64,000 nucleotides of DNA from a virus (Duplodnaviria; Caudoviricetes): positions 96,001-160,000 of IMG/VR virus record IMGVR_UViG_3300042090_001530; one strand, given 5' to 3'. This document shows positions 19,589 through 60,373 of this stretch, in pieces (position 1 is the stretch's first letter; the number at the start of each line of letters is the position of its first letter). The notes below the pieces were generated by a model that searched no databases, had not been told where the DNA came from, and saw only the letters and a program-made list of their open reading frames with translations. The translations under genes and the position numbers were made by a program.

Positions 19589-19701
19589 TGTTCTCTCGCT
19601 ATGACCTGATCTTGTTCGCCGCGCCCGCGCTGGGCTCGCTGCTGTCCATGTTCGCGGTGCGCGCCCTCTACCGCCGCGGCAAGGCGCTGGGGGACGTGTG
19701 A
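19588..19701 (+). CDS. small single-TM protein
   Basis: 37 aa, TGATG overlaps on both sides. Confidence 0.45.
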   Translation: MFSRYDLILFAAPALGSLLSMFAVRALYRRGKALGDV

Positions 19702-21662
19702 TGGACCACCACCATGACATCCCCACCGTCCGCCTGCGCTCGAGCGGCCGGATCGCGCTCGCTTCGATCGCCATGACGTCCCTGCTCGGCTGGGCCCTGT
19801 ACCGCGTGTTCTCCGCCAACTCGGCGCTGCACGGCCGCGACAACAACGTCCTGCTCTGGTCGGCGTTGTTCCTCGCCGCCGGGCATCAGGTGCTGCTCGC
19901 CTGGCGCGACAAGCCGTTCACCGTCACCGACGCCCAGCAGGCCGAACTCGACAAGCTGCACCTGACGGTGAACGTCCCGCTGTACAACGAGTCCCCGGAG
20001 ATCGTCGACCGGGTCATGTACGCCCTGTTCCACCAGTCGCGGCTGCCGCAGCGCATCGACGTCGTCGACGACGGATCCCGCGCCGAGTACCGGGCCGCAT
20101 ACGAGGAGATCCGCGCGTACTGGGCGGACCGGTTCGCCGAGACCGGCGCCGTGTTCACGTGGACGCGGCAGGCCAACGCGGGCAAGCGGCATGCGCAGGC
20201 CGTCACGTTCCGGGACGCCCCGGACGGCATCGTCGTCACCCTCGACTCTGATACGGCGCTCGAGCGCGGCGCCCTGGTCGAGGTGCTCAAGCCGTTCGCC
20301 GACCCGCGGGTGTTCTCGGTCGCGGGTGTTGAGATCGCGTTCAACGCCCGGCGCAACCTGCTGACCCGGATAGGTGCGCTGCGGCAGATCACCTGGCAGC
20401 TCGTCCAATGCTCCGCACTGAACCGGCGCGGGCAGATGCTGGTCAACCGCGGCACCTTCGCCGCCTATCGCACCGTCGTCGTGCAGGAGCGGCTGGCCGC
20501 CTACCTGGGCGAGACGTTCGCGGGCAAGCCCGTGAAGTACTCGGACGACTCGCTGCTCACCCTCTACGCCCTCTCGTACGGGCGCGCCGTGCAGCAGCTC
20601 ACCGCATTCCAGCTGCCTGAATACCCCGAGTACGTCAGCCATGCCCTCCGTCAATGGGCGAGATGGATGCGCGGCTCGACCATCAGGTCCCTGTGGCGCG
20701 CCAAGTACCTGCCAGTCCGATCCTACGGCTGGTTCATGAACACCCTCTCGTGGTGGCAGTTCGTCACCGCGACCATGGCCTACCTGTACGTGTGGGCGTA
20801 CCTGCCCGCCGAGGGACGGTTCGGGCTCGCGTCGGTCGCGATCGCCGTGGCGTGCACGTACCTGATGCCGCTTCGGTCGCTGCTGATAGACCGTTCCGAC
20901 GAGACGAGCGTGCAGCAGTTGGACACGTTCCTGCTCGCCCCCCTGTCCTGGGCGTGGTCGCTGCTGGTCCTGCGCCCGCTGCGCCTGTACGGTGCGCTCA
21001 CGTGCGCGAACAACGGGTGGGGTACGCGCTCGGCCGTGGAGGTCGGGTTCGCGCGCGACCATGGAACCATGGCACTCGATCCGCTGGCTGAGACCGCCGT
21101 CATCGCTACCACCTCGGACACCCTCACCCTCCCGCCGGTCGGCCGTCCGGCCCGGCACAGACGCCGCCGGGGATGGTTGCATCCGGTGCACCTGACCGCG
21201 TTCGGCGCGGTGACCGCCGCGGCGGCATGCGGCGCGGTGGTGGTGCTCGCCGGGACCTCGCCGAGCCCCGACCGGTTCGCGCCGGGCCCGCGCGCCGTAG
21301 TGTCGGCCAGGGCGGCGGCCACGATCACCATCCCCGCGATCACTGCGCCCGCTGCCGCGCCTACGCCAGGCGTAGGGGGGCAGGTGCCCGCGGCTGCGGT
21401 AAGCGTCCTTGGGCCGCCTTCCTCGACTCCGGCAGCCATCCCGCCGCCGACCGTGCCGGGGCCCGGCACGGTCGCAGCCTCAAGCGGCACGACCGCCGCC
21501 GTGCCGCCGGCTCCGATGCCAACGAAGACTCCAACGGCCTCGCCGTCCGCATCCGTGACGCCGACCGCGAGCGCGGCCCCAAGCGTCTCCTCAAGTCCGT
21601 CGGCGTCCGCGAGCATCTCGCCGAGCGCCACGATCACTACGCCGACCGGGAGCCCGGAATGA
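19701..21662 (+). CDS. processive GT2 synthase (hyaluronan/chitin synthase/NodC-like) with Pro/Ser/Thr-rich C-tail
   Basis: VPLYNE, VVDDGS, NAGKRHAQ, TLDSDT, YSDDSLLT, LRQWARW (QxxRW); N- and C-terminal TM helices. Confidence 0.9.
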   Translation: MDHHHDIPTVRLRSSGRIALASIAMTSLLGWALYRVFSANSALHGRDNNVLLWSALFLAAGHQVLLAWRDKPFTVTDAQQAELDKLHLTVNVPLYNESPEIVDRVMYALFHQSRLPQRIDVVDDGSRAEYRAAYEEIRAYWADRFAETGAVFTWTRQANAGKRHAQAVTFRDAPDGIVVTLDSDTALERGALVEVLKPFADPRVFSVAGVEIAFNARRNLLTRIGALRQITWQLVQCSALNRRGQMLVNRGTFAAYRTVVVQERLAAYLGETFAGKPVKYSDDSLLTLYALSYGRAVQQLTAFQLPEYPEYVSHALRQWARWMRGSTIRSLWRAKYLPVRSYGWFMNTLSWWQFVTATMAYLYVWAYLPAEGRFGLASVAIAVACTYLMPLRSLLIDRSDETSVQQLDTFLLAPLSWAWSLLVLRPLRLYGALTCANNGWGTRSAVEVGFARDHGTMALDPLAETAVIATTSDTLTLPPVGRPARHRRRRGWLHPVHLTAFGAVTAAAACGAVVVLAGTSPSPDRFAPGPRAVVSARAAATITIPAITAPAAAPTPGVGGQVPAAAVSVLGPPSSTPAAIPPPTVPGPGTVAASSGTTAAVPPAPMPTKTPTASPSASVTPTASAAPSVSSSPSASASISPSATITTPTGSPE

Positions 21663-22705
21663 GCAGGCGCATCTGGATCCTCGCGGCGGCCGTCGTGCTC
21701 GCGTGCGCAGCCGGGGGAGCGGGCCTGGCTGCCGACGGGCACGGGCCTGCGGCCCGCACGGTGGCCGCGGCGGGCGCGGCACGCACCAGTGCGGCCTCGA
21801 ACCCGGCGAGACCCTCAGCGTCCGCCGCGGCGCCCGCAGTGCCCGTGAACGCCGCGCCGTACACCGACCCGGCGGGCAAGTACCTGGGTGTCGCGCTCCC
21901 GGCCGGCACTGCGGGTCTCGCCGGGTTCGCCGCCTCGACCGGTGTCCACCCGGACTTGTGGGAGACGTATGCCGGCTGGGGCGAGGCGTTCCCGACGTCG
22001 GATGCCACCTCGGCGTGGTCGCAGGGCGCGATGACCCTTGTGGCGTGGCAGACGGACTCCACGAGCCTCACGTCGATCGCGGACGGCGGTAGCGACGCCT
22101 ACCTTGAGCGGTTCGCCGCCGCGGTCCACGTTTTCGCGCACCCGGTGATGATCGGCATCGACCACGAGATGAACGGCGACTGGTACCCGTGGGGCACGCA
22201 AGCCGTCACCCCGGCCCGGTTCGTCGCGGCCTGGCGGCACATCCACGACATCTTCGTGGCCGCCGGGGACGACAACGTCCTGTGGGTGTGGGCGCCCAAC
22301 GTCGTCAACCCTGTGCCCAACGTCGCCCTTCAGCCGTACTACCCGGGCAACGCGTACGTGGACATCGTCGGGATCACGGGCTACTACACGGGCGAGATCG
22401 GCGAGGACTCGTATGCGGGATTGTTCGGCCGCACCGAAACAATCGTCGAACAATTCTCTGACCGGCCGTTTCTCGCATCCGAGACAGGCGTCGAGCAAGG
22501 TGCAGACAAGGCCGCGTGGGTCAGCAACCTGATCGACGGAGTGAAGGCGGACCCGCAGATGCTCGGGTTCGTGTACTTCGACTTCGGCGCCGCCCAGGGC
22601 AAACGCGCGGACTGGACGCTGCAAGACGACCCGGCCGCGCTCACCGCCTACCGGACCGACGCGGCCACGATCACTGAAGCCGCCATCTCGAACGGAGCGC
22701 GCTGA
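21659..22705 (+). CDS. secreted/anchored GH26 glycoside hydrolase
   Basis: signal-like N-terminus; HEMNGDWYPW (acid/base), WVWAPN, YPGNAYVDIVG, LASETG (nucleophile). Confidence 0.88.
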   Translation: MSRRIWILAAAVVLACAAGGAGLAADGHGPAARTVAAAGAARTSAASNPARPSASAAAPAVPVNAAPYTDPAGKYLGVALPAGTAGLAGFAASTGVHPDLWETYAGWGEAFPTSDATSAWSQGAMTLVAWQTDSTSLTSIADGGSDAYLERFAAAVHVFAHPVMIGIDHEMNGDWYPWGTQAVTPARFVAAWRHIHDIFVAAGDDNVLWVWAPNVVNPVPNVALQPYYPGNAYVDIVGITGYYTGEIGEDSYAGLFGRTETIVEQFSDRPFLASETGVEQGADKAAWVSNLIDGVKADPQMLGFVYFDFGAAQGKRADWTLQDDPAALTAYRTDAATITEAAISNGAR

Positions 22706-24513
22706 TGGTGCAGACCACGCCCGCATTCATGATCGACGGCCCGAGTACGGTCGACCGCGACGACGCGATCCGCCTCGAGGAGAACCCGGACGGCACCCGC
22801 ACGCTCATCGTGTACGTCGCCGACCTGACGGCCGCGCTCGACACTGATCCGGGCCTACTAGGCGTGGCGCTCGACCGCGGCGCGTCGCAGTACCGGCGAC
22901 AGGTGGCGGTGGAGACGATGCTGCCGGACGACGTCCAGGCAGCGTGCACTCTCGCCGAGGACACTGCCCGGCCGGTCCTGGAGATACGGCTGCCACTCGA
23001 CCCCGCGGGCGTCGTAGGCGACGCGGTATTGGGGCGCAGCGTGCTGTCTGGCGCAGTTGCCTTGTCGCACGAGCAGGCCGCGTTCGCGGTCGCGGACCGG
23101 CGCCATCCGCACCACAAGCCGCTGACGGCGCTGCGAGAGGTCGCCGAGGCGCTCTTTCGTGCCCGCTACGGCGCGTCTTCGGCGTTCTACGACTTCACGC
23201 GAGGCGTCTTCGTGGACGAGGACGGCGCGCTAGTGAAGGTGAAGGCCGCGCACGTCGTCGGGCACCTGATCGTCCAAGAGGCGATGATCGCGGCGAACCG
23301 GGCGGTCGCAGAGTGGGCGATCCGCGAGGACGTCCCGATCATGTTCCGTAACCACGCGGCCGCAGTCTCGGCCCCGCCTGCTGCCGTGCACCTCGAAGAC
23401 TTGTCGGCCGCGCTGCGCAGCGACGACCCCGCAGAACTGGCGACGTGGTTGGCGCGGGCCGAACTCACCGGACGCCGGGCCCGGTACGACGCGTACCCGC
23501 GTGAGCATCACGGGCTCGGCATCCCCGCCTACTGCCACAGTACGAGCCCGCTGCGCCGGGCCGCGGACCTGATCACGCAGCGTTCGATCGTCGCCCGCTT
23601 GGACGGGCGGGCGGCGCCGTTCACGGTGGAGGATGTCGCCGGGTTCTCCGAGCGGCTCACGGTCGTGATCGCGGAGGCGAAGTCGGCGAGCAGCACGGCC
23701 AGTCGGGAACGCGCGCACGAGCAGGCGCGGCAGATCCTGGACCAGGGCGCCGACTATTCGAGGATGAGCGCGGCCCGGTTCTTCGCGCTCGTCAAGCGCG
23801 CGACGAAGGAAGGCATCGCGTCGCCCGGGTTCCTGACCGAGGTCACCCGCCGCGCCGACACTGACATGTTCGAACTGCGCGACCTCTACCACCTGATCCT
23901 GCTGCCGACCGGCACCGAGTGGCTGGCAGCGAAGTCGGCGTGCCTCGCTCAGGTGTCGCGGCATCCGGAGCACGCGGTGAGCCTCGTGGCGATGTGGGCT
24001 CAGACCAGAGGCGTCGAACAGCCCGCGTACTCGCATTCGGCGGCCGGCCCGTCGCATCGACCGGCGTTCACCGCGAGCGGTGCCGTGGCCGGCCGTGACG
24101 GGGTGCAGGTCTCGGGTGCGGCCCGGACCGCGGCCTCGAAGGGGTCCGCGCAAGCCCAAGCAGCGCTCAGTCTGCTCGCCGCACTCGCTGGCGTCCCTGA
24201 CTGCTCGACGGATGCAGCCATCCCGATCGAACCGGCATCCGAGCCGAAGCAGCCGACGCTCACGGGCGATCCGCTCCGGGCGTTGAATCACGCGCGCAAT
24301 ACCGGGCTGCTCTCGCGTGTGGAGTGGGTGGTCCAGCAAGGTGCAGCGGCGGACGGCCAGCCGCTGTTCGACGCACACCTCACCGCGCAGCGCCGCCCAG
24401 GCGCGGCGGTCGAGGGCCGGGGCCGCGCGGCAACGAAGAAGGCGGCGAAGGCTGCCGCTGCGGCCGACCTCGTGGACCGCCTGAAGACGACCGCCTCGAA
24501 TGGAGCGAACTGA
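22705..24513 (+). CDS. RNB-domain (RNase II/R) ribonuclease fused to two dsRNA-binding domains
   Basis: IDGPSTVDRDDA, QEAMIAAN, HSTSPLRRAAD; dsRBD-like GPSHRPAF...SKGSAQAQAA and ...GRAATKKAAKAAAA. Confidence 0.85.
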   Translation: MVQTTPAFMIDGPSTVDRDDAIRLEENPDGTRTLIVYVADLTAALDTDPGLLGVALDRGASQYRRQVAVETMLPDDVQAACTLAEDTARPVLEIRLPLDPAGVVGDAVLGRSVLSGAVALSHEQAAFAVADRRHPHHKPLTALREVAEALFRARYGASSAFYDFTRGVFVDEDGALVKVKAAHVVGHLIVQEAMIAANRAVAEWAIREDVPIMFRNHAAAVSAPPAAVHLEDLSAALRSDDPAELATWLARAELTGRRARYDAYPREHHGLGIPAYCHSTSPLRRAADLITQRSIVARLDGRAAPFTVEDVAGFSERLTVVIAEAKSASSTASRERAHEQARQILDQGADYSRMSAARFFALVKRATKEGIASPGFLTEVTRRADTDMFELRDLYHLILLPTGTEWLAAKSACLAQVSRHPEHAVSLVAMWAQTRGVEQPAYSHSAAGPSHRPAFTASGAVAGRDGVQVSGAARTAASKGSAQAQAALSLLAALAGVPDCSTDAAIPIEPASEPKQPTLTGDPLRALNHARNTGLLSRVEWVVQQGAAADGQPLFDAHLTAQRRPGAAVEGRGRAATKKAAKAAAAADLVDRLKTTASNGAN

Positions 24514-48943: not shown

Positions 48944-49151
48944 CAGCGTCTCCGTGCGTTGGTTCCGTGGCGGGGAGTAGTCCGGCGTCGTCGAGCATCC
49001 CGAGCGCCCGCCTGGCCGCCGCGTCCGGGTAGGGCGCGCCGCCGGGCTGATGGTCGACCGCGCGCCGGCCGAGCGAGACGTACGTGGCGACCTGTACGAG
49101 CGCGTCGAACGCCTCACGGGGTACGGCGACGTAGCCGCTCTCCCGGCTCAC
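48936..49151 (-). CDS. hypothetical protein
   Basis: coupled ORF. Confidence 0.5.
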   Translation of the reverse strand: MSRESGYVAVPREAFDALVQVATYVSLGRRAVDHQPGGAPYPDAAARRALGMLDDAGLLPATEPTHGDADG

Positions 49152-49429
49152 TCCGCGCTCAATTCGAAGTGCAGCCCAAGCTCGGTGATGACGGCGCTCG
49201 CCCCCGGCATCAGGCCGTCGAGGACGGTCGGGTTCGCGTTGATGTAGGCAGTGACCGCCTTCGCGTTTCCGAGAACCCGTGCGGCGGCGGCATCGTTCTC
49301 GCGCTGGATCTCCTCCATGACGCGGTCGTACGCCTCCCAGTAGGCCTGCTCTTCCGGGGTCATGTCGTCGAGCCCGAACACGGCCTCGATCCGCAGCTTC
49401 AGGTGCCCGGCGTACGCGTCGTCAGTCAT
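49148..49429 (-). CDS. hypothetical protein
   Basis: coupled ORF. Confidence 0.55.
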   Translation of the reverse strand: MTDDAYAGHLKLRIEAVFGLDDMTPEEQAYWEAYDRVMEEIQRENDAAAARVLGNAKAVTAYINANPTVLDGLMPGASAVITELGLHFELSAE

Positions 49430-50165
49430 CGGCCGCCTCGTCCTCGTTCAACTGGTCTTCGTCGAAGGCCGGGATGCCGTGCAGGTTCGCCGTCAGCTTG
49501 GCGCTCGGGCCGTACACGTCGTTCCGGTGGCACCGGCACGGGCACACCCCGAGGACGCTGGTCCTGCTCAGCACCGTGCCCCAGCCGATCGGATTTGGCT
49601 CCACGGCGCCAGCGGAGCGGATAATGAACCCGGCGGTACAGCGCGGCCACACCTCGTCCTGATGGTCCCTGTCGCTGTCACGGCAGCGCTCCAGGTCGTG
49701 CTTGTCGCCCGGCTTGACGATGAACACCTTGCCGCGCAGGTACCGGTACGACTCCTCATCGGCGGTCGCGACCGCGCCGAAGCTGCGCTCGATGAAGTAC
49801 TTCACGAAGTGCTCGAACCGGTCCGTGTCGGTGCCGCCGAACTGAAGGTCCAGCAGCATCGGGTCGAGATGCGTCTCGCGCGACGTGAACCGGCGTCCGT
49901 CAATGCGCACGGACACTTCCATCAGGACGTTCGACTCATGCCACGCCGGGCGCCCGGTATGCGGGTCGTAGACGCCGGGGTAGGGTGCCCGGGACGGACC
50001 GGTGGGCCAGCGCACGACCTGCCCGGCGACGGCCCGCATGTGCTCGTCGCCACCGGCTTCGGCGTCCTGGATCAGCCGTAGGACGTCGCGTTCGCTACCG
50101 CCGTCCGTGCCGAGGCGACGGGCGCGCTCGGACAACTCCTCGGGAGTGGGGCCGGACTCAGTCAT
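49422..50165 (-). CDS. hypothetical protein
   Basis: coupled ORF, high GC3, CPCRCH motif. Confidence 0.6.
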   Translation of the reverse strand: MTESGPTPEELSERARRLGTDGGSERDVLRLIQDAEAGGDEHMRAVAGQVVRWPTGPSRAPYPGVYDPHTGRPAWHESNVLMEVSVRIDGRRFTSRETHLDPMLLDLQFGGTDTDRFEHFVKYFIERSFGAVATADEESYRYLRGKVFIVKPGDKHDLERCRDSDRDHQDEVWPRCTAGFIIRSAGAVEPNPIGWGTVLSRTSVLGVCPCRCHRNDVYGPSAKLTANLHGIPAFDEDQLNEDEAADD

Positions 50166-50508
50166 CGTCGTCCCCTTTGCAGAGCAGCGTCCCGGATTCC
50201 TGGAAGCCGCAGGTCCTGCACGCCTCCTGGAAGTTGCACTGCCGCCGAGCGCCTTCGTGGTCGTGGAAGTCGTGATGCGCCATCGGTCCGCAGCCTTGCG
50301 GACACTCCCGTTCGATCACGGGCCGCAGCGGGGCTGACTCGCAGACCTCGGGCCACCGGTAGTAGTCGTTCGCGTCGTCATCGTCGAGGAACCACGCGAA
50401 GCCCCACGCGTCGCTCCGAAACCAGAGCCGGCCGTGTCGGTCCACGACGCGGGTAAGCGGGGGCGGTTCGGCGCAGCCGAGGGGGAGCGGTTCGCCGAGG
50501 CTAAGCAT
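50158..50508 (-). CDS. hypothetical zinc-finger protein
   Basis: AAGGAG RBS; CPQGC..CRTC. Confidence 0.55.
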   Translation of the reverse strand: MLSLGEPLPLGCAEPPPLTRVVDRHGRLWFRSDAWGFAWFLDDDDANDYYRWPEVCESAPLRPVIERECPQGCGPMAHHDFHDHEGARRQCNFQEACRTCGFQESGTLLCKGDDDD

Positions 50509-50851
50509 CGATCTCCTTCGGTCGCAGGACTTCGCCGTCCACGAACTCGGGCTGAACGGACGCGACCTTGACGTAGCCTTCGCTCTCGCCGTCAGTGGTT
50601 ACCGACAGGTAGACCGAGAGCCCTGGCGTGTGCCACTCCCAGCAGCGGCTGCCGTCGTCGCCGACGCCTTCGGACGGGGCCGTGGTGACGACGAGATGCC
50701 GGGCGCCGTCGCGGGCATGCTCGGGCACGCCCAGGCCGGCGAGGAACGCGGCTGCGAGCGGCGTATTCGCGGCCGTCGAGCATTCGGCCGGCGGCACCGG
50801 CGCGACGCTGAGGAGGTCGACTGGGCGGAAGACGTCGCGGGGGTTAGTCAT
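50501..50851 (-). CDS. hypothetical protein
   Basis: GGAG RBS, 8-nt overlap. Confidence 0.5.
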   Translation of the reverse strand: MTNPRDVFRPVDLLSVAPVPPAECSTAANTPLAAAFLAGLGVPEHARDGARHLVVTTAPSEGVGDDGSRCWEWHTPGLSVYLSVTTDGESEGYVKVASVQPEFVDGEVLRPKEIDA

Positions 50852-51326
50852 CGCAATCTCCGGGTGCAACCAGTTCGAGCAGCCGCTGCTCCCAGGACGC
50901 GTGCAGCGTGTTGACGTTGTCGCCAGCGAGTTGGCCTGCCTCGCCTGCCTGCGCCACGACGCCGCCGAGTTCGTTCAGGCCCGCGCCGTCGGCGGTGCGG
51001 ATCCGGTACTCCAGTTCGGTGAACGCGTCCGGCCCGGACGGCGGCGCTGGCTCAGCGCCTTTGGGCGCGACCAGCCTGCCGAGCCGCGCCGACCAGGCTT
51101 CGCACAACTCGAGGTCTTGGTCGCGGGTGAGACTCTGGCCGAGCCACGCCTCACGGATCTCGATCCACAACGGTCCGAGTGCCGCACCGTCGGCCGCCTT
51201 GATCCGGGTGAGCAGCGCGTTGAACAGCGCCGTGTCCGGGCGCCACGTGAAGTCGTGCGTCCATGCCGCCAGGATCTCGCCGAACACCTGGCCGAAGGCT
51301 TCGGGGAACGGTATGGGCTCAGTCAT
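50844..51326 (-). CDS. hypothetical helical protein
   Basis: coupled ORF. Confidence 0.55.
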   Translation of the reverse strand: MTEPIPFPEAFGQVFGEILAAWTHDFTWRPDTALFNALLTRIKAADGAALGPLWIEIREAWLGQSLTRDQDLELCEAWSARLGRLVAPKGAEPAPPSGPDAFTELEYRIRTADGAGLNELGGVVAQAGEAGQLAGDNVNTLHASWEQRLLELVAPGDCDD

Positions 51327-51636
51327 CGACCTTCACCACCGTCACGGGCCCGGTTTCGCACACTCGCGTCCACGATTCCGGTTCGAAGTAGTCGACGTCG
51401 GTCTTCTCCCAGTTCGCGGCACCGTCATGGTCGCCATCGTCCGTCCGCCGCCACAGCCGACCGCTGGCGTCTCGAACCGTGACCCAGTGCCCGGGCTCGG
51501 GGTCGCCCGCGGTGAGTACGTCGCCGACGTTCGGCGGCACCCGGTCCTCCCAAGGAAACGGGGTCGAGTCGTTGACCCGGAACAGCCCGCCGACCATCGC
51601 GTGCGGGCGGATGACCGGTCCGAGGCTCTCAGCCAT
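51319..51636 (-). CDS. hypothetical protein
   Basis: coupled ORF. Confidence 0.55.
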   Translation of the reverse strand: MAESLGPVIRPHAMVGGLFRVNDSTPFPWEDRVPPNVGDVLTAGDPEPGHWVTVRDASGRLWRRTDDGDHDGAANWEKTDVDYFEPESWTRVCETGPVTVVKVDD

Positions 51637-51853
51637 CGGCCACCGCCGTCGATTCGACGATCTCGTACTTGAGCGACTGGACCAGCCGCCCCTTGAACTG
51701 ACGCACCCGCAGGCCGGTCACGACGCAGCGCGTGAGCTCAGGCGTGCCGGACTCCCAGTCGGTGAAGTCGAACTCGAGCGGCTCATCGAGCAGCGCGTAG
51801 TTCGCGGTGAATTCGTGGAGCAGTCCGCGGAGAGTCGGCGGCTTGTCAGTCAT
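51629..51853 (-). CDS. hypothetical protein
   Basis: coupled ORF. Confidence 0.5.
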   Translation of the reverse strand: MTDKPPTLRGLLHEFTANYALLDEPLEFDFTDWESGTPELTRCVVTGLRVRQFKGRLVQSLKYEIVESTAVADG

Positions 51854-52118
51854 CCTCGCGCTCCGCTTCAGCGGCCGCCGCCGGGCATCCGAGCCACGGC
51901 CAGTGCACGAGGCTCAGGTTGACGTTCGTCGGCCCGGTCTCGGTGCGTTCGGGATGGAAGTACGCGCCACTGTGCATGTCGGCCTTCTCGAGTCCGTACC
52001 AGTGCCCGTTGAGCGTGATGAACGAGCCGCCTGTGAGGCCGTGGAGGTCGATGTCGTGGTGAGCGCCGAGGTGTTCGACGCGGGCGGTGAGGGGTTGACG
52101 CTTCGCTGAGTCCGGCAC
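51846..52118 (-). CDS. hypothetical protein
   Basis: first gene of the - strand unit. Confidence 0.5.
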   Translation of the reverse strand: MPDSAKRQPLTARVEHLGAHHDIDLHGLTGGSFITLNGHWYGLEKADMHSGAYFHPERTETGPTNVNLSLVHWPWLGCPAAAAEAEREDD

Positions 52119-52198: not shown

Positions 52199-52933
52199 GT
52201 GGCCAAGCTGTGCCAGATCGTCGCCGTCGAGAAGTCGGTGAAGTCCAAGTCGTTCGCGGACCTCACCGAAGCGCATCACGCGTTGCAGAAGCCCGCGCTG
52301 CTCGCCGGGATCTCCCGCACCTACCAGCCCAAGGACGAGGAAGGCGACACGTTCCCGCCCGAGTCCACGAAGGTCCAGGTGCGCGCCGAGGACGTGATCG
52401 AACGCACCGCGGCGAACCTCACCCGGCTGTTCGACGTGACCGCAACGAAGGAGTGGGCGAACTGCACGGCCCGGGCGGACGTGAAGCTCCCGGACGGCAC
52501 GGTGCTCGTGCACCAGGCGCCGGTCACGTACCTGCTGTTCCTGGAGAAGCAACTGGTCGACCTGGCGACGTTCGTGAAGAAGCTGCCGGTGCTCGACGCG
52601 GCCGAGTCGTGGGAGCACGACCCTGCGTCCAACGCGTGGCGCACCCCCGCGGTGCAGACGAACCGGTCGAAGAAGGTCTACCGCAACCACATCAAGGCCG
52701 AAGCCACCGATAAGCACCCGGCTCAGGTCGAGACGTACACCGAAGACGTGACCGCCGGGCACTGGACGACCACGAAGTTCTCCGGCGCCCTGCCGGCGAC
52801 GCGGGTTAAGGAGCTCGCCGAGCGGGTGGAGACGCTGCACCACGCCGTGAAGTTCGCGCGCGAGGAGGCCAACGGGGCCGAGGTGACGGATCGTCTGGTC
52901 GGCGAGGCCGTGTTCGGTTACCTGTTCGCGTGA
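52199..52933 (+). CDS. conserved actinobacterial/phage protein of unknown function (DUF7873-like)
   Basis: KLCQIVAVEKSVKSK..ISRTYQPKDEEG..VTYLLFLEKQL..KHPAQVE..KFSGAL..VKFAREEAN; family recalled from memory, not searched. Confidence 0.75.
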   Translation: MAKLCQIVAVEKSVKSKSFADLTEAHHALQKPALLAGISRTYQPKDEEGDTFPPESTKVQVRAEDVIERTAANLTRLFDVTATKEWANCTARADVKLPDGTVLVHQAPVTYLLFLEKQLVDLATFVKKLPVLDAAESWEHDPASNAWRTPAVQTNRSKKVYRNHIKAEATDKHPAQVETYTEDVTAGHWTTTKFSGALPATRVKELAERVETLHHAVKFAREEANGAEVTDRLVGEAVFGYLFA

Positions 52934-53684: not shown

Positions 53685-53716
53685 GCGACCGCCCCGGTTT
53701 CGGCCGGGGCGGTCGC
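53685..53716. terminator. intrinsic terminator, probably bidirectional
   Basis: GCGACCGCCCCGG-TTTCGG-CCGGGGCGGTCGC then TTCTCT. Confidence 0.85.
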
Positions 53717-53938: not shown

Positions 53939-54208
53939 CTACGCCGCTGGCATGTCCCGCAAGGCGTCGCGCACCGCGTCCCAAGGGAATACCACGAGTC
54001 GTCCGTCGCTGCCGATGTCGGCGCCGTCGGGCAGTTGGGCGCGGAGTTCCTCGGCCCTGTCTTTGCCGATGTACGCGATGCTGCCGTCGGACAGGATGAA
54101 CACGTCCGGGCAGTTCATGCCCTGTGAGCTGCCGCGTTCCTGCGGTGTCGATCCGAGTCGGCCCACGATGGTGACTGGCGCGTGCCCGTCGCTGTCGGCA
54201 GATCCCAT
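53939..54208 (-). CDS. small conserved actinobacterial protein
   Basis: GGGAG RBS; NCPDVFILSDGSIAYIG..GRLVVFP. Confidence 0.6.
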   Translation of the reverse strand: MGSADSDGHAPVTIVGRLGSTPQERGSSQGMNCPDVFILSDGSIAYIGKDRAEELRAQLPDGADIGSDGRLVVFPWDAVRDALRDMPAA

Positions 54209-54279: not shown

Positions 54280-55425
54280 TCAGGCCTTGACGATCGCCCC
54301 CCAGTGCCCGCGGCTGAGCCGGATCGTGCCGTCGAGCCCGACGGTCGCGTTCGCACCGTACAGCGGCAGGCGCCCTTCGATCAGCCACCTCTTCTTGAGC
54401 CCGTCGAGGCTGCGCCACAGGTCGATCGGGCCACTCACGTGGACCGTAGGGAGTTGCCCGATGGAGCCTTCGGCGCGGGCCCATGAACCTTCCCGATCCC
54501 AGATCAGGCTGATCGCGTAGGTGCCGCGTCGCACCCACCGCGTTTGGATGCCCTGATGCTGGACGGCGAGGTTGGAGTACAACTCCCACGCGTCGTCGAG
54601 GTCGGTCAGCGGGAACACGCCCGCGCGCGCCGACTGGTCGCCGCTGGACTCGAGCATCAGGTCGAGTCGCCGCTTCGAGACTTCCGGCGGATAGGTGTCG
54701 GAGTGGCGTGCGGGCATGAACCCGGCCCAGTCGCGTTCGATACGCCCGAGCAGCGTCCCGTCGGGTTGTCGGTTGGCGGTGAGGATCGCCGTCGTGCCGT
54801 CGAGCACCGTGACGATCCGGCCGCCGGGCCGTAGGGCTTCGATCCACGCGGGCGGGATCGGGCTGACGGCGACGGTCGCGACGATCCGGTCGTACGTGCC
54901 GGGCACGATCCGGGTCGCGTCGCACACCTCGAGGGTGGGCGTCAGGCCGTTTGCCTCGAGGCGTTCACGCGCGGCCTTCACCAGGTACGGGTCTACGTCG
55001 ACCGAGGTGACATGCCTGTCGCCGAGGCGCGTGCACAGCAGGGCGGTGCCGTATCCGGAGCCGGTGCCGACGTCGAGGACGTCCATGCCGTCGACGAGTT
55101 GGCCGTGCCGGTACATCTGGATCAGCAGTCCGGGATGCGTGCTCGACGACGTGGGCCTACCGTCGTCCAGGGTCGTGCCGGGGGCCGCCGCGTCCGCGTG
55201 CATCGTGCCGACGCGGGTGACGAGCGAGACGTCCCGGTATGCGGCATCGACCCATCGGTCTGGGTTCTGCTTGCCGCCGTGGTTGACCCATCCGTCGCCG
55301 CGACGCGCCCACCAGGAGGGCACGTATTCGTGCCGGGGGACCGATGCTAGGGGTTGGCGCCAGCGGGAGACGCCGGGCGTGACGGCGGCGGCCATGTCGG
55401 CGGCGCGCGTTTTCCAGTCGGGCAC
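54280..55425 (-). CDS. protein-L-isoaspartate O-methyltransferase-like (PIMT/PCMT) SAM methyltransferase
   Basis: VPRHEYVP, TSSSTHP, VLDVGTGSGYGTALL, VTSVDVD, YDRIVAT, LRPGGRIV. Confidence 0.88.
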   Translation of the reverse strand: MPDWKTRAADMAAAVTPGVSRWRQPLASVPRHEYVPSWWARRGDGWVNHGGKQNPDRWVDAAYRDVSLVTRVGTMHADAAAPGTTLDDGRPTSSSTHPGLLIQMYRHGQLVDGMDVLDVGTGSGYGTALLCTRLGDRHVTSVDVDPYLVKAARERLEANGLTPTLEVCDATRIVPGTYDRIVATVAVSPIPPAWIEALRPGGRIVTVLDGTTAILTANRQPDGTLLGRIERDWAGFMPARHSDTYPPEVSKRRLDLMLESSGDQSARAGVFPLTDLDDAWELYSNLAVQHQGIQTRWVRRGTYAISLIWDREGSWARAEGSIGQLPTVHVSGPIDLWRSLDGLKKRWLIEGRLPLYGANATVGLDGTIRLSRGHWGAIVKA

Positions 55426-55428
55426 GGG

Positions 55429-56334
55429 TCAGTCCTTGGTTCTCTGTGTGAGCCGGATGGTCGGGAACGGCGGCGTGTAGTCGTAGGCCGGGGCGCATGC
55501 GGGGGTGCGGGCCGGGTCGCAGTCGTTCGAGTCGTCCGGTGTGCATGGGTCGCTGCTGCGGCGCGGGATGCTGCGCATGTGCCGGTTCCAGGTCGGGCCG
55601 GCGAGGATCCCGGCGAGTGTCGCACCGTCGAGGAGGTTGCCTGCACGCAGGCCGCGGCCGAGCACGCACGGGGCGACGGTGCCGTCCGGTAGGATCGCGA
55701 GCCGTCCGTCACCGCAGCGCCCGCACAGTTCGGTGACAGGCGCGTCAATGTCCGGGTTCGGGCTGGCCCGGCCGACACCGCGCGCCCGGTCTATCTTCAC
55801 CAGATCTTCGGGGACGCCGAGCCCGATCAACTCCGCTTTGGCTTCGTCGGCGCGTTGGCCCGGAAGCACTCGGACGATGCCGACCTGCAGCGGGATGCCC
55901 AGGTTTAGGGCCGTGACGATGTTCGCGCGCGTCCGGGCGTGGCTGCCGGGCTTCGTCGTGACCGCATCATGCTCGGCCGCGACGTCGGAGTAGTACGACG
56001 TGCCGAGGGTCACGCGCGGATTGGAGAACGCGTCCCAATGCTGCGCGGTGACGCTGTAGAGGTTCGAGTAGACCTGCACTTTGAGGCCTTCGAAGCCGAG
56101 GACGTAGTCGAGCAGTTCGAGCCAGTGCGGTGACGCGGTCGGCTCGCCGCCGATGAGTTGGATGGTTTCGGCGCCGCAGTCGCGGGCTTGGCGCACTGCA
56201 GCCTTCCAGTCTTCGAGGGTCATCGCGCCGTGGTGTGCGCCCGGATGCGAGCGCGTCAGACAGTGGGTGCACTTGAGTTGGCAGGCATGGGTGAGTTCGA
56301 GTTCGACGAGGCGCGGGACTGCGTCGGCGCCCAT
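55429..56334 (-). CDS. radical SAM protein with SPASM/twitch-like domain and Cys/Asp/Pro-rich C-terminal tail
   Basis: CQLKCTHC, LIGGEPT, YSN, CGRC..G..APC; tail PCTPDDSNDCDPARTPACAPAYD. Confidence 0.9.
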   Translation of the reverse strand: MGADAVPRLVELELTHACQLKCTHCLTRSHPGAHHGAMTLEDWKAAVRQARDCGAETIQLIGGEPTASPHWLELLDYVLGFEGLKVQVYSNLYSVTAQHWDAFSNPRVTLGTSYYSDVAAEHDAVTTKPGSHARTRANIVTALNLGIPLQVGIVRVLPGQRADEAKAELIGLGVPEDLVKIDRARGVGRASPNPDIDAPVTELCGRCGDGRLAILPDGTVAPCVLGRGLRAGNLLDGATLAGILAGPTWNRHMRSIPRRSSDPCTPDDSNDCDPARTPACAPAYDYTPPFPTIRLTQRTKD

Positions 56335-56362: not shown

Positions 56363-56836
56363 TTAAGCCGAGACGCGTTGCAGTACTACGGTAGGCGGGT
56401 CCTCGGCGTGGGCGCCCGCGCTCATGGTCGCCCCGATCGCGAGTGACGCCCACACCAGCTTGCCGAGCCTGGCGGGTTCCGTGCCCCATTCTGCGGCGAG
56501 CGCGTCCACGATCTGCAGGCCGCGCCCGGTTTCTGCGTCGTCGTCGGCGTCGCGTTCCAGCGGCATGGCATCTTTCGCGTCCTGGACTTCGACGAACAGC
56601 AGTCCGTCGTCGGCTTCGCGGTCGGTGTAGATGGTGAGGAACGCAGGCTCCGCACCATGCATCACGGCGTTGGTGACGAGCTCGGATGTGATCAGGTCTG
56701 CTGCGTCCGCGAGATGCCCGAGACCCCACTTGGCCAGGGCGGCGTCGAGGATGCGGCGGGCCTGGTGCGGCGCAGAGCGGGTGAGGGCGAACTGCGTGGA
56801 GACGCGTTCGTGGGTGCGGGGCAGGCGGGTGTTCAC
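56363..56836 (-). CDS. RsbW-like HATPase_c ATP-binding protein
   Basis: ARRIL..LITSELVTNAVMHG..VEVQD..ETGRGLQIVDALAAEWG..KLVWA. Confidence 0.9.
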   Translation of the reverse strand: MNTRLPRTHERVSTQFALTRSAPHQARRILDAALAKWGLGHLADAADLITSELVTNAVMHGAEPAFLTIYTDREADDGLLFVEVQDAKDAMPLERDADDDAETGRGLQIVDALAAEWGTEPARLGKLVWASLAIGATMSAGAHAEDPPTVVLQRVSA

Positions 56837-57176: not shown

Positions 57177-57908
57177 GTGACGCCGAAACAGCGCACCGAA
57201 CCCACCCACCGACGCGACGAAATCGCCGAAGCACTCCGCGGACGCATCGGCATCGGCGAATTCGCCCCCGGGGCCGAAGTGCCGTCCGGACGGGAACTCG
57301 CCGCCCAATACGACTGCGCGCCCATGACCGCCAACGCCGCCCTGCACATACTCGCCGAGGACGGCGTCATCACCATCCGGCCCGGCCGAGGGTCGATCGT
57401 CGCCCGGGCCGTCCCGTCGATCGCCGGGCCCGCCGAGAGGATGAACCGCTCGCGTTCCGGCACCCTGTTCCGCGAGGGCGACGTCCAGGAGATCCTGCGC
57501 TGCCACCTGACGCGGGGACATCCGGACGCGCGGGCCGCGTTGCGCGTGTTCGACGACGAGGAACTGGGCGCCCGCGACTACCTGGTGCGCAACGCGGCCG
57601 GCGCGGTCGTGACGCGTGCGACGTCGTATGTGCATCCGGACGTGTGGACGGCGGTCGCCGAGATCCGGGGGCCGGCGCCGATCCGGGACGGCATCATCGG
57701 CGCGATCCGGCGTGTCCTGGGGCGCGAGGCGGTCGACACCCCGACGCGGCGCAAGGCCGCCCATGCGACGGATGAGGAGGCCGCCGTGTTCGGCGTGCCG
57801 GAGGGCTCCCCGGTGCTCGTCGAGGTCACCGAATGCCAGCTGCGGGACGGCACGGTCGTGGAGTGGAACGTGTCGGTGCACCCGGAAGGGTACTGGGTCG
57901 GGCGGTAA
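57177..57908 (+). CDS. GntR-family regulator with UTRA-like domain (HutC/KorSA-like)
   Basis: AGAAGGA RBS; EIAEALRGRIGIGEF..PSGRELAAQY..GRGSIV; ATDEEAAVFGV..PVL. Confidence 0.9.
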   Translation: MTPKQRTEPTHRRDEIAEALRGRIGIGEFAPGAEVPSGRELAAQYDCAPMTANAALHILAEDGVITIRPGRGSIVARAVPSIAGPAERMNRSRSGTLFREGDVQEILRCHLTRGHPDARAALRVFDDEELGARDYLVRNAAGAVVTRATSYVHPDVWTAVAEIRGPAPIRDGIIGAIRRVLGREAVDTPTRRKAAHATDEEAAVFGVPEGSPVLVEVTECQLRDGTVVEWNVSVHPEGYWVGR

Positions 57909-57914
57909 GTGTCT

Positions 57915-58349
57915 TCAGTCGCCGCCGTCTCCAGCCTCGAGCGTGAGCCGAACTCCAGTGCCGCCGGGATCGACTACGGCGGCGCGCAGGATCCGGGTGA
58001 CCGTGGTGGGCGGCGGTCCCTTGAGCGTGATGAGGATCGACTCGCCGATCTGGTCCGCGAAGGCGTCAGGTGCGAACCGGGAGTCGAGCGGGGACGGCTG
58101 CCAGAGTTCGATCATTTCGGGGACGTGCCCCATCGTGCCCGTGTTACTTCCGCAGCCGCGTGGCGCCCCGGCCGGGCTCGGGTACAGGTCGACGTCCTCG
58201 CCGAACACGAGCGTCGTCTCGCCGGGAGTCGGGCAGCCCGGTTCGCAGAAATGCCGCCCGACGTGCCCGCGCTGCTTGCGGCAGCCGTGCGTGCCCCAGT
58301 ACACGCGGCACGGGCCTTTCGCCGCGAGCTTCCGGGCCTTACCGCGCAT
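57915..58349 (-). CDS. hypothetical protein
   Basis: GAGG RBS; CRVYWGTHGC motif. Confidence 0.55.
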   Translation of the reverse strand: MRGKARKLAAKGPCRVYWGTHGCRKQRGHVGRHFCEPGCPTPGETTLVFGEDVDLYPSPAGAPRGCGSNTGTMGHVPEMIELWQPSPLDSRFAPDAFADQIGESILITLKGPPPTTVTRILRAAVVDPGGTGVRLTLEAGDGGD

Positions 58350-58504
58350 CAGCCGACCTCGGTCCCGGTCGCGTCATCAAGCATCCGGCCGACGTAGTCG
58401 AGGTCGAGCCAGCACACCCAACCGCCTTCGTCCTGTCGAGTCGAGTCGGGGGCCCGGCACAGTCGGCCCACGTGCGCCCGGATTTCCGCGTCCAGGTCAG
58501 CCAT
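58349..58504 (-). CDS. small hypothetical protein
   Basis: 8-nt and TGATG overlaps. Confidence 0.45.
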   Translation of the reverse strand: MADLDAEIRAHVGRLCRAPDSTRQDEGGWVCWLDLDYVGRMLDDATGTEVG

Positions 58505-58766
58505 CGGCGCCCGCCGTCTCCGTCTCGATCGCGGGCTTCTCGCCGACGTAGTCCTCGCGACAGCCCTCGCAGTACCGAATATGCACCGTGTCCCAGGCGG
58601 AGACGGGTTCGCCGGCCTCCTGGTGCTCACGGGCGCCGCACTCCGAGCACACGTCGAACCCGCCGCAGCAGCATCCGGGGCACGACCCGGACGTCGTGTG
58701 CCAGCCGGACCAGGGCTCGCCGGAACCGTCGTCGAACCGGGCCCAGCGGAAGCGGGCGTCAGCCAT
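58497..58766 (-). CDS. Cys-rich hypothetical protein
   Basis: CPGCCC, CSEC, CEGC. Confidence 0.55.
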   Translation of the reverse strand: MADARFRWARFDDGSGEPWSGWHTTSGSCPGCCCGGFDVCSECGAREHQEAGEPVSAWDTVHIRYCEGCREDYVGEKPAIETETAGADG

Positions 58767-59106
58767 CGCTCAGCACCTCCCAGCCGACTTGCCGCAGGAG
58801 TCTCGCCGCGTCGCCTTCACTGGGCCCCCACCGCACCCAGTTCGGGCGTGCAGAAGCCGCGATGGGCGCGTTTCCGGGGGTATCGATGACGAGTTCGGCT
58901 ACCTCGATGAGGACTCGCCCGTCCGGGGTCCACCAACGTCGGACTATCGGCGCGAGAGGGCTTGGGTTGGTGTCGGAGTCCCAGAGTTGCATGTCGTCGC
59001 TGGTGCCTGGCAAGAACTCTGTGGCCATGTACTTCTGCCAGGTGACGTCACTCCTGTCCGGGCCGGAGCGGTCGAGGACGCGCAGCCGCAGAATGATCTC
59101 AGGCAT
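58759..59106 (-). CDS. hypothetical protein
   Basis: GGAGG RBS. Confidence 0.5.
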   Translation of the reverse strand: MPEIILRLRVLDRSGPDRSDVTWQKYMATEFLPGTSDDMQLWDSDTNPSPLAPIVRRWWTPDGRVLIEVAELVIDTPGNAPIAASARPNWVRWGPSEGDAARLLRQVGWEVLSDG

Positions 59107-59165
59107 CGCGGCCTCCGACGTAGGCGCAGGCCTGGATCTCTTCGAGACGCATATCGGGCATCGGG

Positions 59166-59438
59166 TCAGCCACGGTCGGCCGCCCTCGGGTGGTCCGGGT
59201 GCAGCCGGGGCCAGTACTGCGACACGGGGATGCCGTGCCCGCGCAGGTGCGCCTGGACCAGCGTCATCATCTCGGCGACCGTGCCGTCCATGTGCAGGCC
59301 GCCGCACGAGCAGTCGACAAGGAACAGGACCGGTTCGCTCGATGTCAGGCCTCGGAAGTCGAGGTGCGGGGTGGCGGTCAGCGTGTGGTTGCGGCACTCG
59401 ACGCGGACCGCGTCGTCGTCAGCGAGAAGGTCAGTCAT
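59166..59438 (-). CDS. hypothetical protein
   Basis: GGAGGG RBS; CxxH..CSCG..H. Confidence 0.55.
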   Translation of the reverse strand: MTDLLADDDAVRVECRNHTLTATPHLDFRGLTSSEPVLFLVDCSCGGLHMDGTVAEMMTLVQAHLRGHGIPVSQYWPRLHPDHPRAADRG

Positions 59439-59976
59439 CGTCACCCTCCATCGGCTCGTCCGCCTCCATCAGCAACGTCCACAACCAATCCACGCGCAGC
59501 GGCAACTCCTGCGCTCCGCGGTGCGTCACGCCAATGACCGGCGAGCCGTAGCCTTGCGCGTGGTCGTCGATCCACTCCAGGATGCGCTTCGCCGCTTCGA
59601 GTCGCTTCCCGCTCACGGCGGGCCGGGCCAGCCGTAGCGCGCACAATTCGTCGTTGGACTCCCGGAAGCGGGCGCGGATCTCCCGTTCGGCCGCCGTGGC
59701 GCGCTCCAGCCTCTTCAGGAGCGTCGCCGTGTCGTCGTCAGCCTCCGGGCTGCCCGCGGCGCCCCTGTCGTAGCTGTCGCCCTCGGCCGCGAACGCCTCC
59801 TCGGCGAGCGCGCAAGCTGCGCCGTCGCGGTACTGGTCGTAGGCGTTCAGGATGTCAGCGAGGCACGATCGGACGGCCCCGGTCGGCGAGTGCATCTTGC
59901 TGGCCTGCTCGTCGAGGATCGCGGTTAGCTCGGGCGGGATGGTTTCGGCGGTCCAGCGCGCCATCATCTCAGGCAT
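59431..59976 (-). CDS. hypothetical protein
   Basis: GGGAG RBS, 8-nt overlaps. Confidence 0.55.
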   Translation of the reverse strand: MPEMMARWTAETIPPELTAILDEQASKMHSPTGAVRSCLADILNAYDQYRDGAACALAEEAFAAEGDSYDRGAAGSPEADDDTATLLKRLERATAAEREIRARFRESNDELCALRLARPAVSGKRLEAAKRILEWIDDHAQGYGSPVIGVTHRGAQELPLRVDWLWTLLMEADEPMEGDDD

Positions 59977-60373
59977 TCCCGTCTCCCATTCCGGGTCGTG
60001 CAACATGGATTCGGATCGTGCCCTTCGCCACCGACGGGTCAGATGTCACCGGGATCCCTGCCAAGTCGGCGAGCGGCACGCGCGGCCCGGTCGGCTGGTT
60101 CGGCGAATCGGCGTACTCCAATCGCATCCACGTGCCCGCCTCAGTAATTGCCCTATAGCCAGCGAAGTCGCCGAGTTGGACGGTGCACCGCTCGCCGCAG
60201 CCACGCTGCCGATGTGGGACGCCTACGCCGAAGTGCCACAGGCCCGGCATGGGCTCGGCGAACGCCTGAACCCAGGCGGACAGCGCGTCCTCGAGGGCGT
60301 TGCCGCGTTCCCGTTCCGCCGCGGCCTGACCCTTCCACGCCTCGGCATCATCGGACCACTCGTCGTCATGCAT
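59969..60373 (-). CDS. hypothetical protein
   Basis: GGGAGG RBS, 8-nt overlaps. Confidence 0.5.
   Translation of the reverse strand: MHDDEWSDDAEAWKGQAAAERERGNALEDALSAWVQAFAEPMPGLWHFGVGVPHRQRGCGERCTVQLGDFAGYRAITEAGTWMRLEYADSPNQPTGPRVPLADLAGIPVTSDPSVAKGTIRIHVARPGMGDGNA

Follow-up and report, generated by a model that had tools for sequence, protein, structure and literature searches.

Clusters in which a radical S-adenosylmethionine (SAM) enzyme (rSAM) is encoded next to a homolog of protein isoaspartate methyltransferase (PIMT) were described by Lee et al. in 2023 (Adv Sci, PMC10787088, section 2.3); 249 of them were found, without a neighbouring precursor or substrate. Most are from actinobacteria, and the gene after that of the rSAM enzyme encodes a long PIMT homolog which has a C-terminal domain. 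The same order of genes was found at positions 54280 to 56334 of the window, by which we mean the whole stretch of 64,000 nucleotides that was analysed (positions 96,001 to 160,000 of the IMG/VR virus record IMGVR_UViG_3300042090_001530, Caudoviricetes). Unlike in the orphan clusters, for which no substrate was found, a substrate can be proposed here: the C-x-P- and Asp-containing tail of the rSAM enzyme itself. From sequence comparison, we consider it narrowly probable that this tail is the enzyme's own substrate and that the adjacent methyltransferase also modifies it, which would make the pair a compact, two-enzyme, phage-borne cassette for protein modification. The clusters of Lee et al. 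may well belong to the rSAM family described here, as judged from the shared architecture.

PIMT homologs of this kind, here called PAMT, are known to tailor several classes of peptides synthesised by ribosomes and modified post-translationally (RiPPs), i.e. lanthimiditides (OlvA, TxDGC), lassimiditides, graspimiditides (fuscimiditide), imiditides/pamtides and cysimiditides. PAMTs methylate Asp, and not isoAsp, of a specific substrate, which leads to an aspartimide. Their targets are Asp-Gly, Asp-Thr or Asp-His in constrained loops, for example TxDGC in a lanthipeptide or the Zn-Cys4 hairpin of cysimiditides. As in these systems, the methyltransferase of the present locus stands beside the primary maturase and is a PIMT homolog that is lengthened by an extra C-terminal domain, and an Asp followed by a small residue (Asp268, the putative target) lies in a loop that would be bounded by crosslinking or metal-binding residues. 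The imiditides/pamtides and cysimiditides share with it a conserved Asp near Pro/Gly and between cysteines; neither a stand-alone precursor nor CxxCxGxG motifs were found here. The fusion of an enzyme with its substrate is also known, from borosins of the OphMA type, in which a methyltransferase carries the core peptide at its C-terminus and which have split relatives (bioRxiv 10.1101/2021.12.24.474128). The proposed cassette resembles borosins in that enzyme and putative substrate form one polypeptide and in that split forms occur among the relatives, but it belongs to another enzyme class with another chemistry, borosins being N-methylated at the backbone and released by a protease.

The two genes and the parts of the rSAM protein are located as follows:

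55429-56334, minus strand: rSAM gene, 301 aa, with the core in residues 1 to ~258 and the tethered tail in residues ~259-301 (list of open reading frames (ORFs), Pfam)
55666-55725, minus strand: twitch-like auxiliary-cluster site C204-x2-C207...G218-x4-C223 (invariant alignment columns)
55480-55548, minus strand: tail core, residues 263-285, with three C-x-P units (C264, C272, C280)
55432-55479, minus strand: variable C-terminal extension, residues 286-301, YTPPFPTIRLTQRTKD (alignments)
54280-55425, minus strand: PAMT gene (RiPP-type PIMT homolog), 381 aa, GTG start (PF01135, TIGR04188, phrog_13505)

The 301-aa protein belongs to the radical SAM superfamily, as seen from the SAM-cluster motif C18-x3-C22-x2-C25, a match to PF04055 (Radical_SAM, 2.4e-12, 47.8 bits against a Pfam cut-off of 29.5) and the fold matches of its model. 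The best of these were SkfB (6EFN, E 1.3e-11), SuiB, BlsE, EpeE, anSME (4K39, E 6.5e-8) and CteB, so that the closest folds would be those of peptide-modifying rSAM enzymes. The core begins at residue ~10 and is not preceded by an N-terminal domain. NCBIfam offered no family model for the protein (all 42 matches were far under their cut-offs), and homologs were numerous: 756 matches were obtained from a word index and 4,448 by a full HMMER search, 286 of these with E-values <1e-30. The initial annotation had noted a short SPASM/twitch region, and this agrees with what was found. The SPASM match is marginal (22.6 bits against a cut-off of 21.5), spans only residues 204-264 (Pfam, to position 63/67) and covers only the first half of the domain (C207-x15-C223, G218-x4-C223); CX2CX5CX3C is missing. 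A complete SPASM domain (PF13186) has the seven-Cys motif CX9-15GX4C, CX2CX5CX3C and a final C and binds two auxiliary clusters, so that the protein is not counted among the SPASM proteins. Across the family, C204, C207 and C223 are the only invariant cysteines outside the SAM motif, in a close (A1) as well as in a diverse alignment (A4). Three invariant cysteines and SkfB as top fold match would be compatible with a twitch-type site (an abridged SPASM with a beta-hairpin and 3-4 Cys for a single auxiliary cluster). In the AlphaFold2 (AF2) model the core had a pLDDT >90; residues 261-301 had ~40, leaving the tail unfolded, and it was not packed onto the core.

The tail reads PCTPDDSNDCDPARTPACAPAYD (residues 263-285) and contains the units C264-T-P, C272-D-P and C280-A-P. 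The three units had been recognised in the initial annotation, which placed this string at about 55480-55547 instead of 55480-55548. D268-S269, in the loop between C264 and C272, is invariant and Y284 is near-invariant, but the extension YTPPFPTIRLTQRTKD is missing from most homologs, which stop at ...CxPxY(D/E) (alignments A1 and A3). The tryptic peptides predicted for the tail are SSDPCTPDDSNDCDPAR and TPACAPAYDYTPPFPTIR. A six-frame scan of the whole genome of 202,490 bp found the tail motif once, at the tail itself, and neither a second CxP cluster in a convincing coding frame nor a separate precursor, in line with the initial annotation, which had seen no precursor ORF in the operon. In the clade whose rSAM genes are linked to a PAMT, the tail follows the near-invariant motif C-x-P-x-D-[SGT]-x-D-C-x-P-[AS]-x-T-x-A-C-x-P-x-[YF], and the number of tail cysteines is 3, 4, 5, 6, 7 or 9. 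In Kitasatospora homologs (L001, L015, L018, L037 and L049) the whole 21-residue motif is present three times, with Asp-Ser in every copy and with GIAPAPVLLGA-like linkers of ~10 residues between the copies.

In the wider family, among the 150 best representatives at 50% identity, the region after the hairpin holds anywhere from 0 to 55 C-x-P units, for example in P0211 (55 units in 645 aa), P0216 (42), P0192 (34) and P0130 (26), and the pattern recurs in 80 metagenome loci (41-73% GC). The hypervariability that the initial annotation had wished to see checked holds for the copy number, and not for the motif within the PAMT clade. P0211 is encoded on a phage-like contig of 150 kb (L088, Logan SRR29659228) which also has Phage_cap_E capsid and TROVE/Ro60-vWA genes. 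Certain tails consist of nearly perfect tandem repeats, among them CHPTVEVSAER x12 in P0146, CDPETPPTP x~7 in P0265 and C-A-P-A-F-A-type units in L160, and this suggests rapid expansion by slippage. Tail cysteines are followed by x-Pro in 789 of 830 cases in the representatives and in 813 of 838 in the loci (95-97%), against ~16% expected from the proline frequency of the tails; the pattern is beyond chance. The present protein, with three auxiliary-site cysteines and all three tail cysteines in C-x-P, is a member of this CxP-repeat rSAM family. Family-wide, no position of the unit other than Cys and Pro(+2) is fixed.

The array is not bound to the C-terminus. In L091, a tail-less homolog (P0243, 35% identity, E 2e-51) is encoded 21 nt downstream of a 106-aa ORF which ends in ...CIEPQKGGGCNPDRFCRPDQGVCWPAL (also given as ...CNPDRFCRPDQGVCWPAL), and a second leader-like small ORF follows. 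In P0167 (L092; 40% identity, E 3e-62) five C-x-P units precede CX3CX2C, and the units are likewise N-terminal in L172 and L173. The core of the tail-less homologs P0243 and P0186 is intact. Since no CxP ORF was found near P0186 (L093), some tail-less homologs are without a visible partner. Taken from the sequences, the C-x-P array thus looks like a movable module, and by analogy a repeat fused or adjacent to a peptide-type rSAM would be the usual signature of a substrate. The initial annotation had suggested that the enzyme modifies its own tail, and the variation in copy number and position among the relatives argues for this.

These comparisons also bear on the alternative given in the initial annotation, i.e. 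that the tail cysteines ligate an auxiliary Fe-S cluster. They might do so as a diverged second SPASM cluster or as a fourth ligand with an extra metal; the tail would then be structural, and the substrate of both enzymes would be encoded elsewhere. C264 falls where the second SPASM motif begins, and in the Streptomyces clade C264, C272 and C280 and their spacing are near-invariant, with D268 and D271 as possible further ligands. A fixed set of ligands is disfavoured, however, because the array has 0-55 copies, switches its terminus, can be a separate gene and is left unfolded by AF2 without packing on the core. The spacing is not of the CxxC type, the whole motif is repeated in tandem, and the core of P0243 and P0186 does without a tail. 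We therefore regard the ligand role as quite improbable.

The second gene starts 3 nt after the rSAM stop codon. Its product was annotated as PIMT-like from the beginning, and this was borne out by a match to PF01135 (PCMT, 1e-16) over residues 99-223 with the SAM motif G120-T-G-S-G, followed by an extra C-terminal domain as in other PAMTs (~150 aa), and by a match to phrog_13505 (1.9e-59). TIGR04188, the methyltransferase of ATP-grasp peptide maturase systems, was matched at 1.5e-69 over residues 18-352 with 235 bits, below the cut-off of 380 bits, and no ATP-grasp gene was found in the neighbourhoods examined; because of this score the protein is placed with the RiPP-associated PAMTs but outside the graspetide subfamily. 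The published C-terminal motif of PAMTs is WXXXGXP (Zhu and Link 2026, PMC13001092). The corresponding W347-LIE-G351-RL-P354 is one residue longer, and about half of the rSAM-linked PAMT homologs have L in place of W347, so that the motif here is [W/L]xxxGxxP. A further difference from the known PAMT-tailored RiPPs is the primary enzyme, which is an rSAM instead of LanB/C, a lasso cyclase or an ATP-grasp enzyme and to which the putative substrate is fused.

The linkage of the two genes is close. In 83 of 84 assessable genome loci (drawn from 80 genome loci plus the first six) the PAMT gene lies directly downstream (-27 to +54 nt), and in Kitasatospora, Streptomyces and Nonomuraea genomes a PCMT-domain gene is the sole constant neighbour of the rSAM gene. 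The surroundings of the pair are often prophage or mobile DNA, with primase and PolA, tail and lysin genes or a transposase. A PAMT was adjacent in 91 of the 158 non-redundant loci that left space for a gene downstream, and all 91 tails have D-[G/S/T] (89 D-G/S, 2 D-T) between cysteines, as in D268-S269 here. In the 67 PAMT-less loci D-G/S occurs in 17 tails, at no fixed position. On viral contigs, D-[S/G]-x-D-C-x-P is present in 7/7 PAMT-linked tails and in 0/9 PAMT-less ones. A second, distant PAMT-linked clade, whose methyltransferases are 29-38% identical to the present one, has tails of the type C-x-P-[D/E]-D-G-G-C-x-P; one of its members (L138) is linked to a PAMT and has a Cys-less DDDGG tail. 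A homolog from a Mycobacterium abscessus prophage (42% identity) has five C-x-P units, no Asp in the tail and no PAMT. In Mycobacterium phage prophi68-1 (L007 2860-2956; MW584157), the rSAM homolog gp78 is annotated as 'oxidoreductase' and lies between the integrase and the lysis cassette, without a PAMT. Its coding sequence ends at a TGA, after which the frame continues with GPNCNPQCTPQTICAPTHCVPVRGHCGPNEP (five C-x-P units, no Asp) up to a TAG; the TGA is either a recent nonsense mutation or a leaky read-through site which doses the tail.

Such co-variation is the pattern expected if Asp268 is the target of the methyltransferase, and it supports the suggestion of the initial annotation that the methyltransferase further tailors the tail. 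Fisher's test of PAMT against Asp-Gly/Ser (p ~7e-24) was dropped as a claim of significance since the tree leaves only 2-5 independent contrasts. A complex prediction with PAMT, SAM and the tail (alignments A2 and A3) was run without controls and gave ipSAE values of 0.01 and 0.00; it weighs neither way. The initial annotation had also pointed to a Cys-x3-Asp crosslink as in ranthipeptides. This seems less likely: D268 is kept without exception only in the company of a PAMT, a conserved acceptor is missing from the PAMT-less relatives, and family-wide only Cys and Pro(+2) are fixed. For the same reasons, the Asp is better explained as the methyltransferase target.

The co-variation of PAMT and Asp would also fit a tail that is a handle for the methyltransferase only, perhaps a hairpin anchored by a metal or a cluster which displays Asp268, while the rSAM core acts on a different target, for instance a protein of the phage or the host, a nucleic acid or a small molecule. 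The methyltransferases of cysimiditides require such a Cys-metal hairpin with the Asp in the loop, and the Cys-less tail of L138 still comes with a PAMT. Neither a protease nor an exporter was found in the neighbourhoods examined, and the occurrence on phages and prophages would speak for a part in infection and not in the making of antibiotics. We nevertheless regard this explanation as unlikely: it does not account for PAMT-less relatives with 2-55 C-x-P units, for the shift of the units to the N-terminus or to a neighbouring small ORF, or for the fixation of only Cys and Pro(+2), and it has against it that a repeat peptide fused or adjacent to a peptide-type rSAM usually marks the substrate. 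Even less credence, and slightly less than to the cluster ligands above, is given to the idea that host or phage supplies an unlinked peptide or protein on which both enzymes act and that the tail is a flexible, Cys/Pro-rich linker or docking segment. That Lee et al. saw no neighbouring precursor fits this idea, but a linker would neither hold 95-97% of its cysteines in C-x-P nor keep an invariant Asp-Ser/Gly/Thr which tracks the methyltransferase, and the tail is the sole CxP cluster of the 202-kb genome that lies in a convincing coding frame.

If the tail is the built-in substrate, the reaction may proceed as follows. C18, C22 and C25 would hold the normal SAM-cleaving cluster, and C204, C207 and C223 a three-Cys, twitch-like auxiliary site. 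The disordered tail would offer its three C-x-P units to the active site of the same polypeptide or of a neighbouring copy, where the 5'-deoxyadenosyl radical would take a hydrogen in or beside each unit, and the open iron of the auxiliary cluster may serve as docking point for a tail Cys. Each unit would end up with a thioether-type crosslink or with an oxidised cysteine. The PAMT would then methylate Asp268, which precedes Ser269 in the C264-C272 loop, and the methyl ester would cyclise onto the amide of Ser269 to an aspartimide, which may hydrolyse to isoaspartate as in PIMT-tailored RiPPs. The rSAM chemistry probably stays within the tripeptide, given that conservation across the family is limited to Cys and Pro(+2). 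Oxidation of the Cys C-beta as in anSME, a Cys-to-backbone link and a Cys-to-Pro link are among the candidates.

Of the thioether-forming twitch/SPASM maturases, CteB binds the substrate Cys at the open site of its auxiliary cluster. If one tail Cys filled the open fourth position of the auxiliary cluster here, this would match CteB-like docking and be compatible with a substrate role of the tail. The enzymes of this group (SkfB, CteB, AlbA, PapB, QhpD) resemble the present one in the reduced auxiliary site and the Cys-rich substrate, which is proposed in our case; different from them, the present system lacks both a RiPP recognition element (RRE) and a separate leader peptide, and besides Pro(+2) it has no conserved acceptor. 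Sactipeptide and ranthipeptide systems have a separate leader-core precursor, an RRE on the maturase and a Cys-to-carbon thioether; the present system is placed outside them, since the rSAM has no N-terminal domain and no separate precursor was found in the 202-kb genome. A second comparison is anSME, whose substrate motif is C/S-x-P/A-x-R; the recognition core of sulfatases is Cys followed by x-Pro. C-x-P is thus shared, and the unit C272-D-P-A-R fits the full motif. All units have C-x-P but no conserved Arg(+4), and there are only three auxiliary cysteines as opposed to the two fully ligated clusters of anSME, so that the protein does not group with anSME; moreover, the substrates of anSME are folded sulfatases and not a tethered repeat.

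Several observations weigh against the tail as the common substrate of both enzymes. The tree of the rSAM cores has the PAMT label switching five times, with two contrasts on well-supported branches, so that the association of PAMT and Asp amounts to only 2-5 phylogenetically independent contrasts and is without statistical force once relatedness is counted. Within the PAMT clade, the three tail cysteines and their 8-residue spacing are near-invariant, and C264 stands at the place of the first Cys of the second SPASM motif in the Pfam alignment; because of both, some tail cysteines may yet have a role as metal or cluster ligands. The methyltransferase may not need the rSAM step, because the tail of L138 is free of Cys and yet PAMT-linked. 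Neither a protease nor an exporter nor an RRE was found beside the pair in the neighbourhoods examined, which makes a released peptide doubtful; for this reason the product may stay a modified protein.

Literature searches turned up nothing relevant on radical SAM enzymes that have Cys-x-Pro repeats as substrates, or on substrate-fused rSAM maturases. Already known are the rSAM-PAMT pair as an orphan, tailoring by PAMTs and, from borosins, the fusion of enzyme and substrate; new are the coupling to a PAMT by way of an invariant Asp-Ser/Gly/Thr, the connection with the orphan clusters already published and the location on a phage. A wider reading, which we hold somewhat short of probable, is that of a widespread, undescribed rSAM class with a tethered Cys-x-Pro substrate, a new Cys-x-Pro modification, an aspartimide or isoAsp formed, in actinobacteria and their phages, by the PAMT in a crosslinked loop and the first substrate-fused rSAM maturase, supplying the substrate of the 249 orphan rSAM-PAMT clusters. 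If the tail is indeed the substrate, the missing substrate of a published cluster type would be named, the cassette would be tied to a large undescribed Cys-x-Pro family, and an rSAM would be added to the very few enzymes known to bring along a RiPP-like substrate of their own, with borosins as the precedent. The fixed Cys-x-Pro unit suggests a modification local to the tripeptide, and the system would be testable with a two-gene expression construct and mass spectrometry. The occurrence of the cassette on a phage of at least 202 kb and in prophages would then raise the question of what a self-modifying Cys/Asp tail does in infection or lysogeny.

The genome (~69% GC) has genes for the large terminase subunit, portal, tape-measure protein and tail fibre, and on account of these the cassette is assigned to a high-GC phage whose genome measures at least 202 kb. 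A megablast search of the locus against plasmids gave no match. The cassette was not classed as a defence system; the PADLOC matches were weak and generic only (pVip, 2.6e-9, over the N-terminal half of the rSAM; mad2 over the methyltransferase core). Around the pair, the following features were found:

56363-56818, minus strand: HATPase_c_2 (anti-sigma-factor-like) gene directly upstream of the rSAM gene, start approximate, taken from a 151-aa relative
57177-57908, plus strand: divergent GntR/UTRA regulator (PF00392 1.5e-13, PF07702)
53685-53716, downstream of the minus-strand genes: 14-bp GC-rich hairpin (consensus match only)

The HATPase_c_2 gene (PF13581, 5.9e-7; phrog_12354, transcription regulation, 4.8e-24) is probably a regulator or a co-transcribed gene. 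The order HATPase-rSAM-PAMT is retained in the closest relative (L201, 81% identity), and the HATPase_c_2 gene is not conserved across the family. GntR genes adjoin the rSAM-PAMT pair in some relatives (L001 and L006). The hairpin possibly marks the end of the transcription unit, as judged from its sequence. Between it and the methyltransferase gene lies an 88-aa ORF (53939-54205, minus strand) without a family match, which is not kept beside the pair in L201. The hairpin itself comes after a plus-strand gene (52199-52933) for a 244-aa protein that corresponds to DUF7873 from end to end (E 2e-108).

Some further observations were made on the same phage. On contig C1, the phage genes named above lie at 20-51 kb (L197:10513-12165, L197:12178-15996, L198:6793-10941 and L197:3577-9390). 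The portal (1272 aa) is fused to NUDIX-like and RNA-ligase-like regions, the tape-measure protein has 1382 aa and the tail fibre 1937 aa. At 49148-52118 and 58349-60006, on the minus strand, small ORFs overlap such that each stop overlaps the start of the next; nearly all have 2-4 acidic residues before the stop (ends such as …GDDDD, …CDD, …VDD, …EDD and …GDDD), and no family matches were obtained among those scanned. Finally, the plus strand at 18044-24513 encodes a PMT-like membrane glycosyltransferase, a GT2 glycosyltransferase and an RNB (RNase II/R-type) exonuclease with a weak dsRNA-binding motif.

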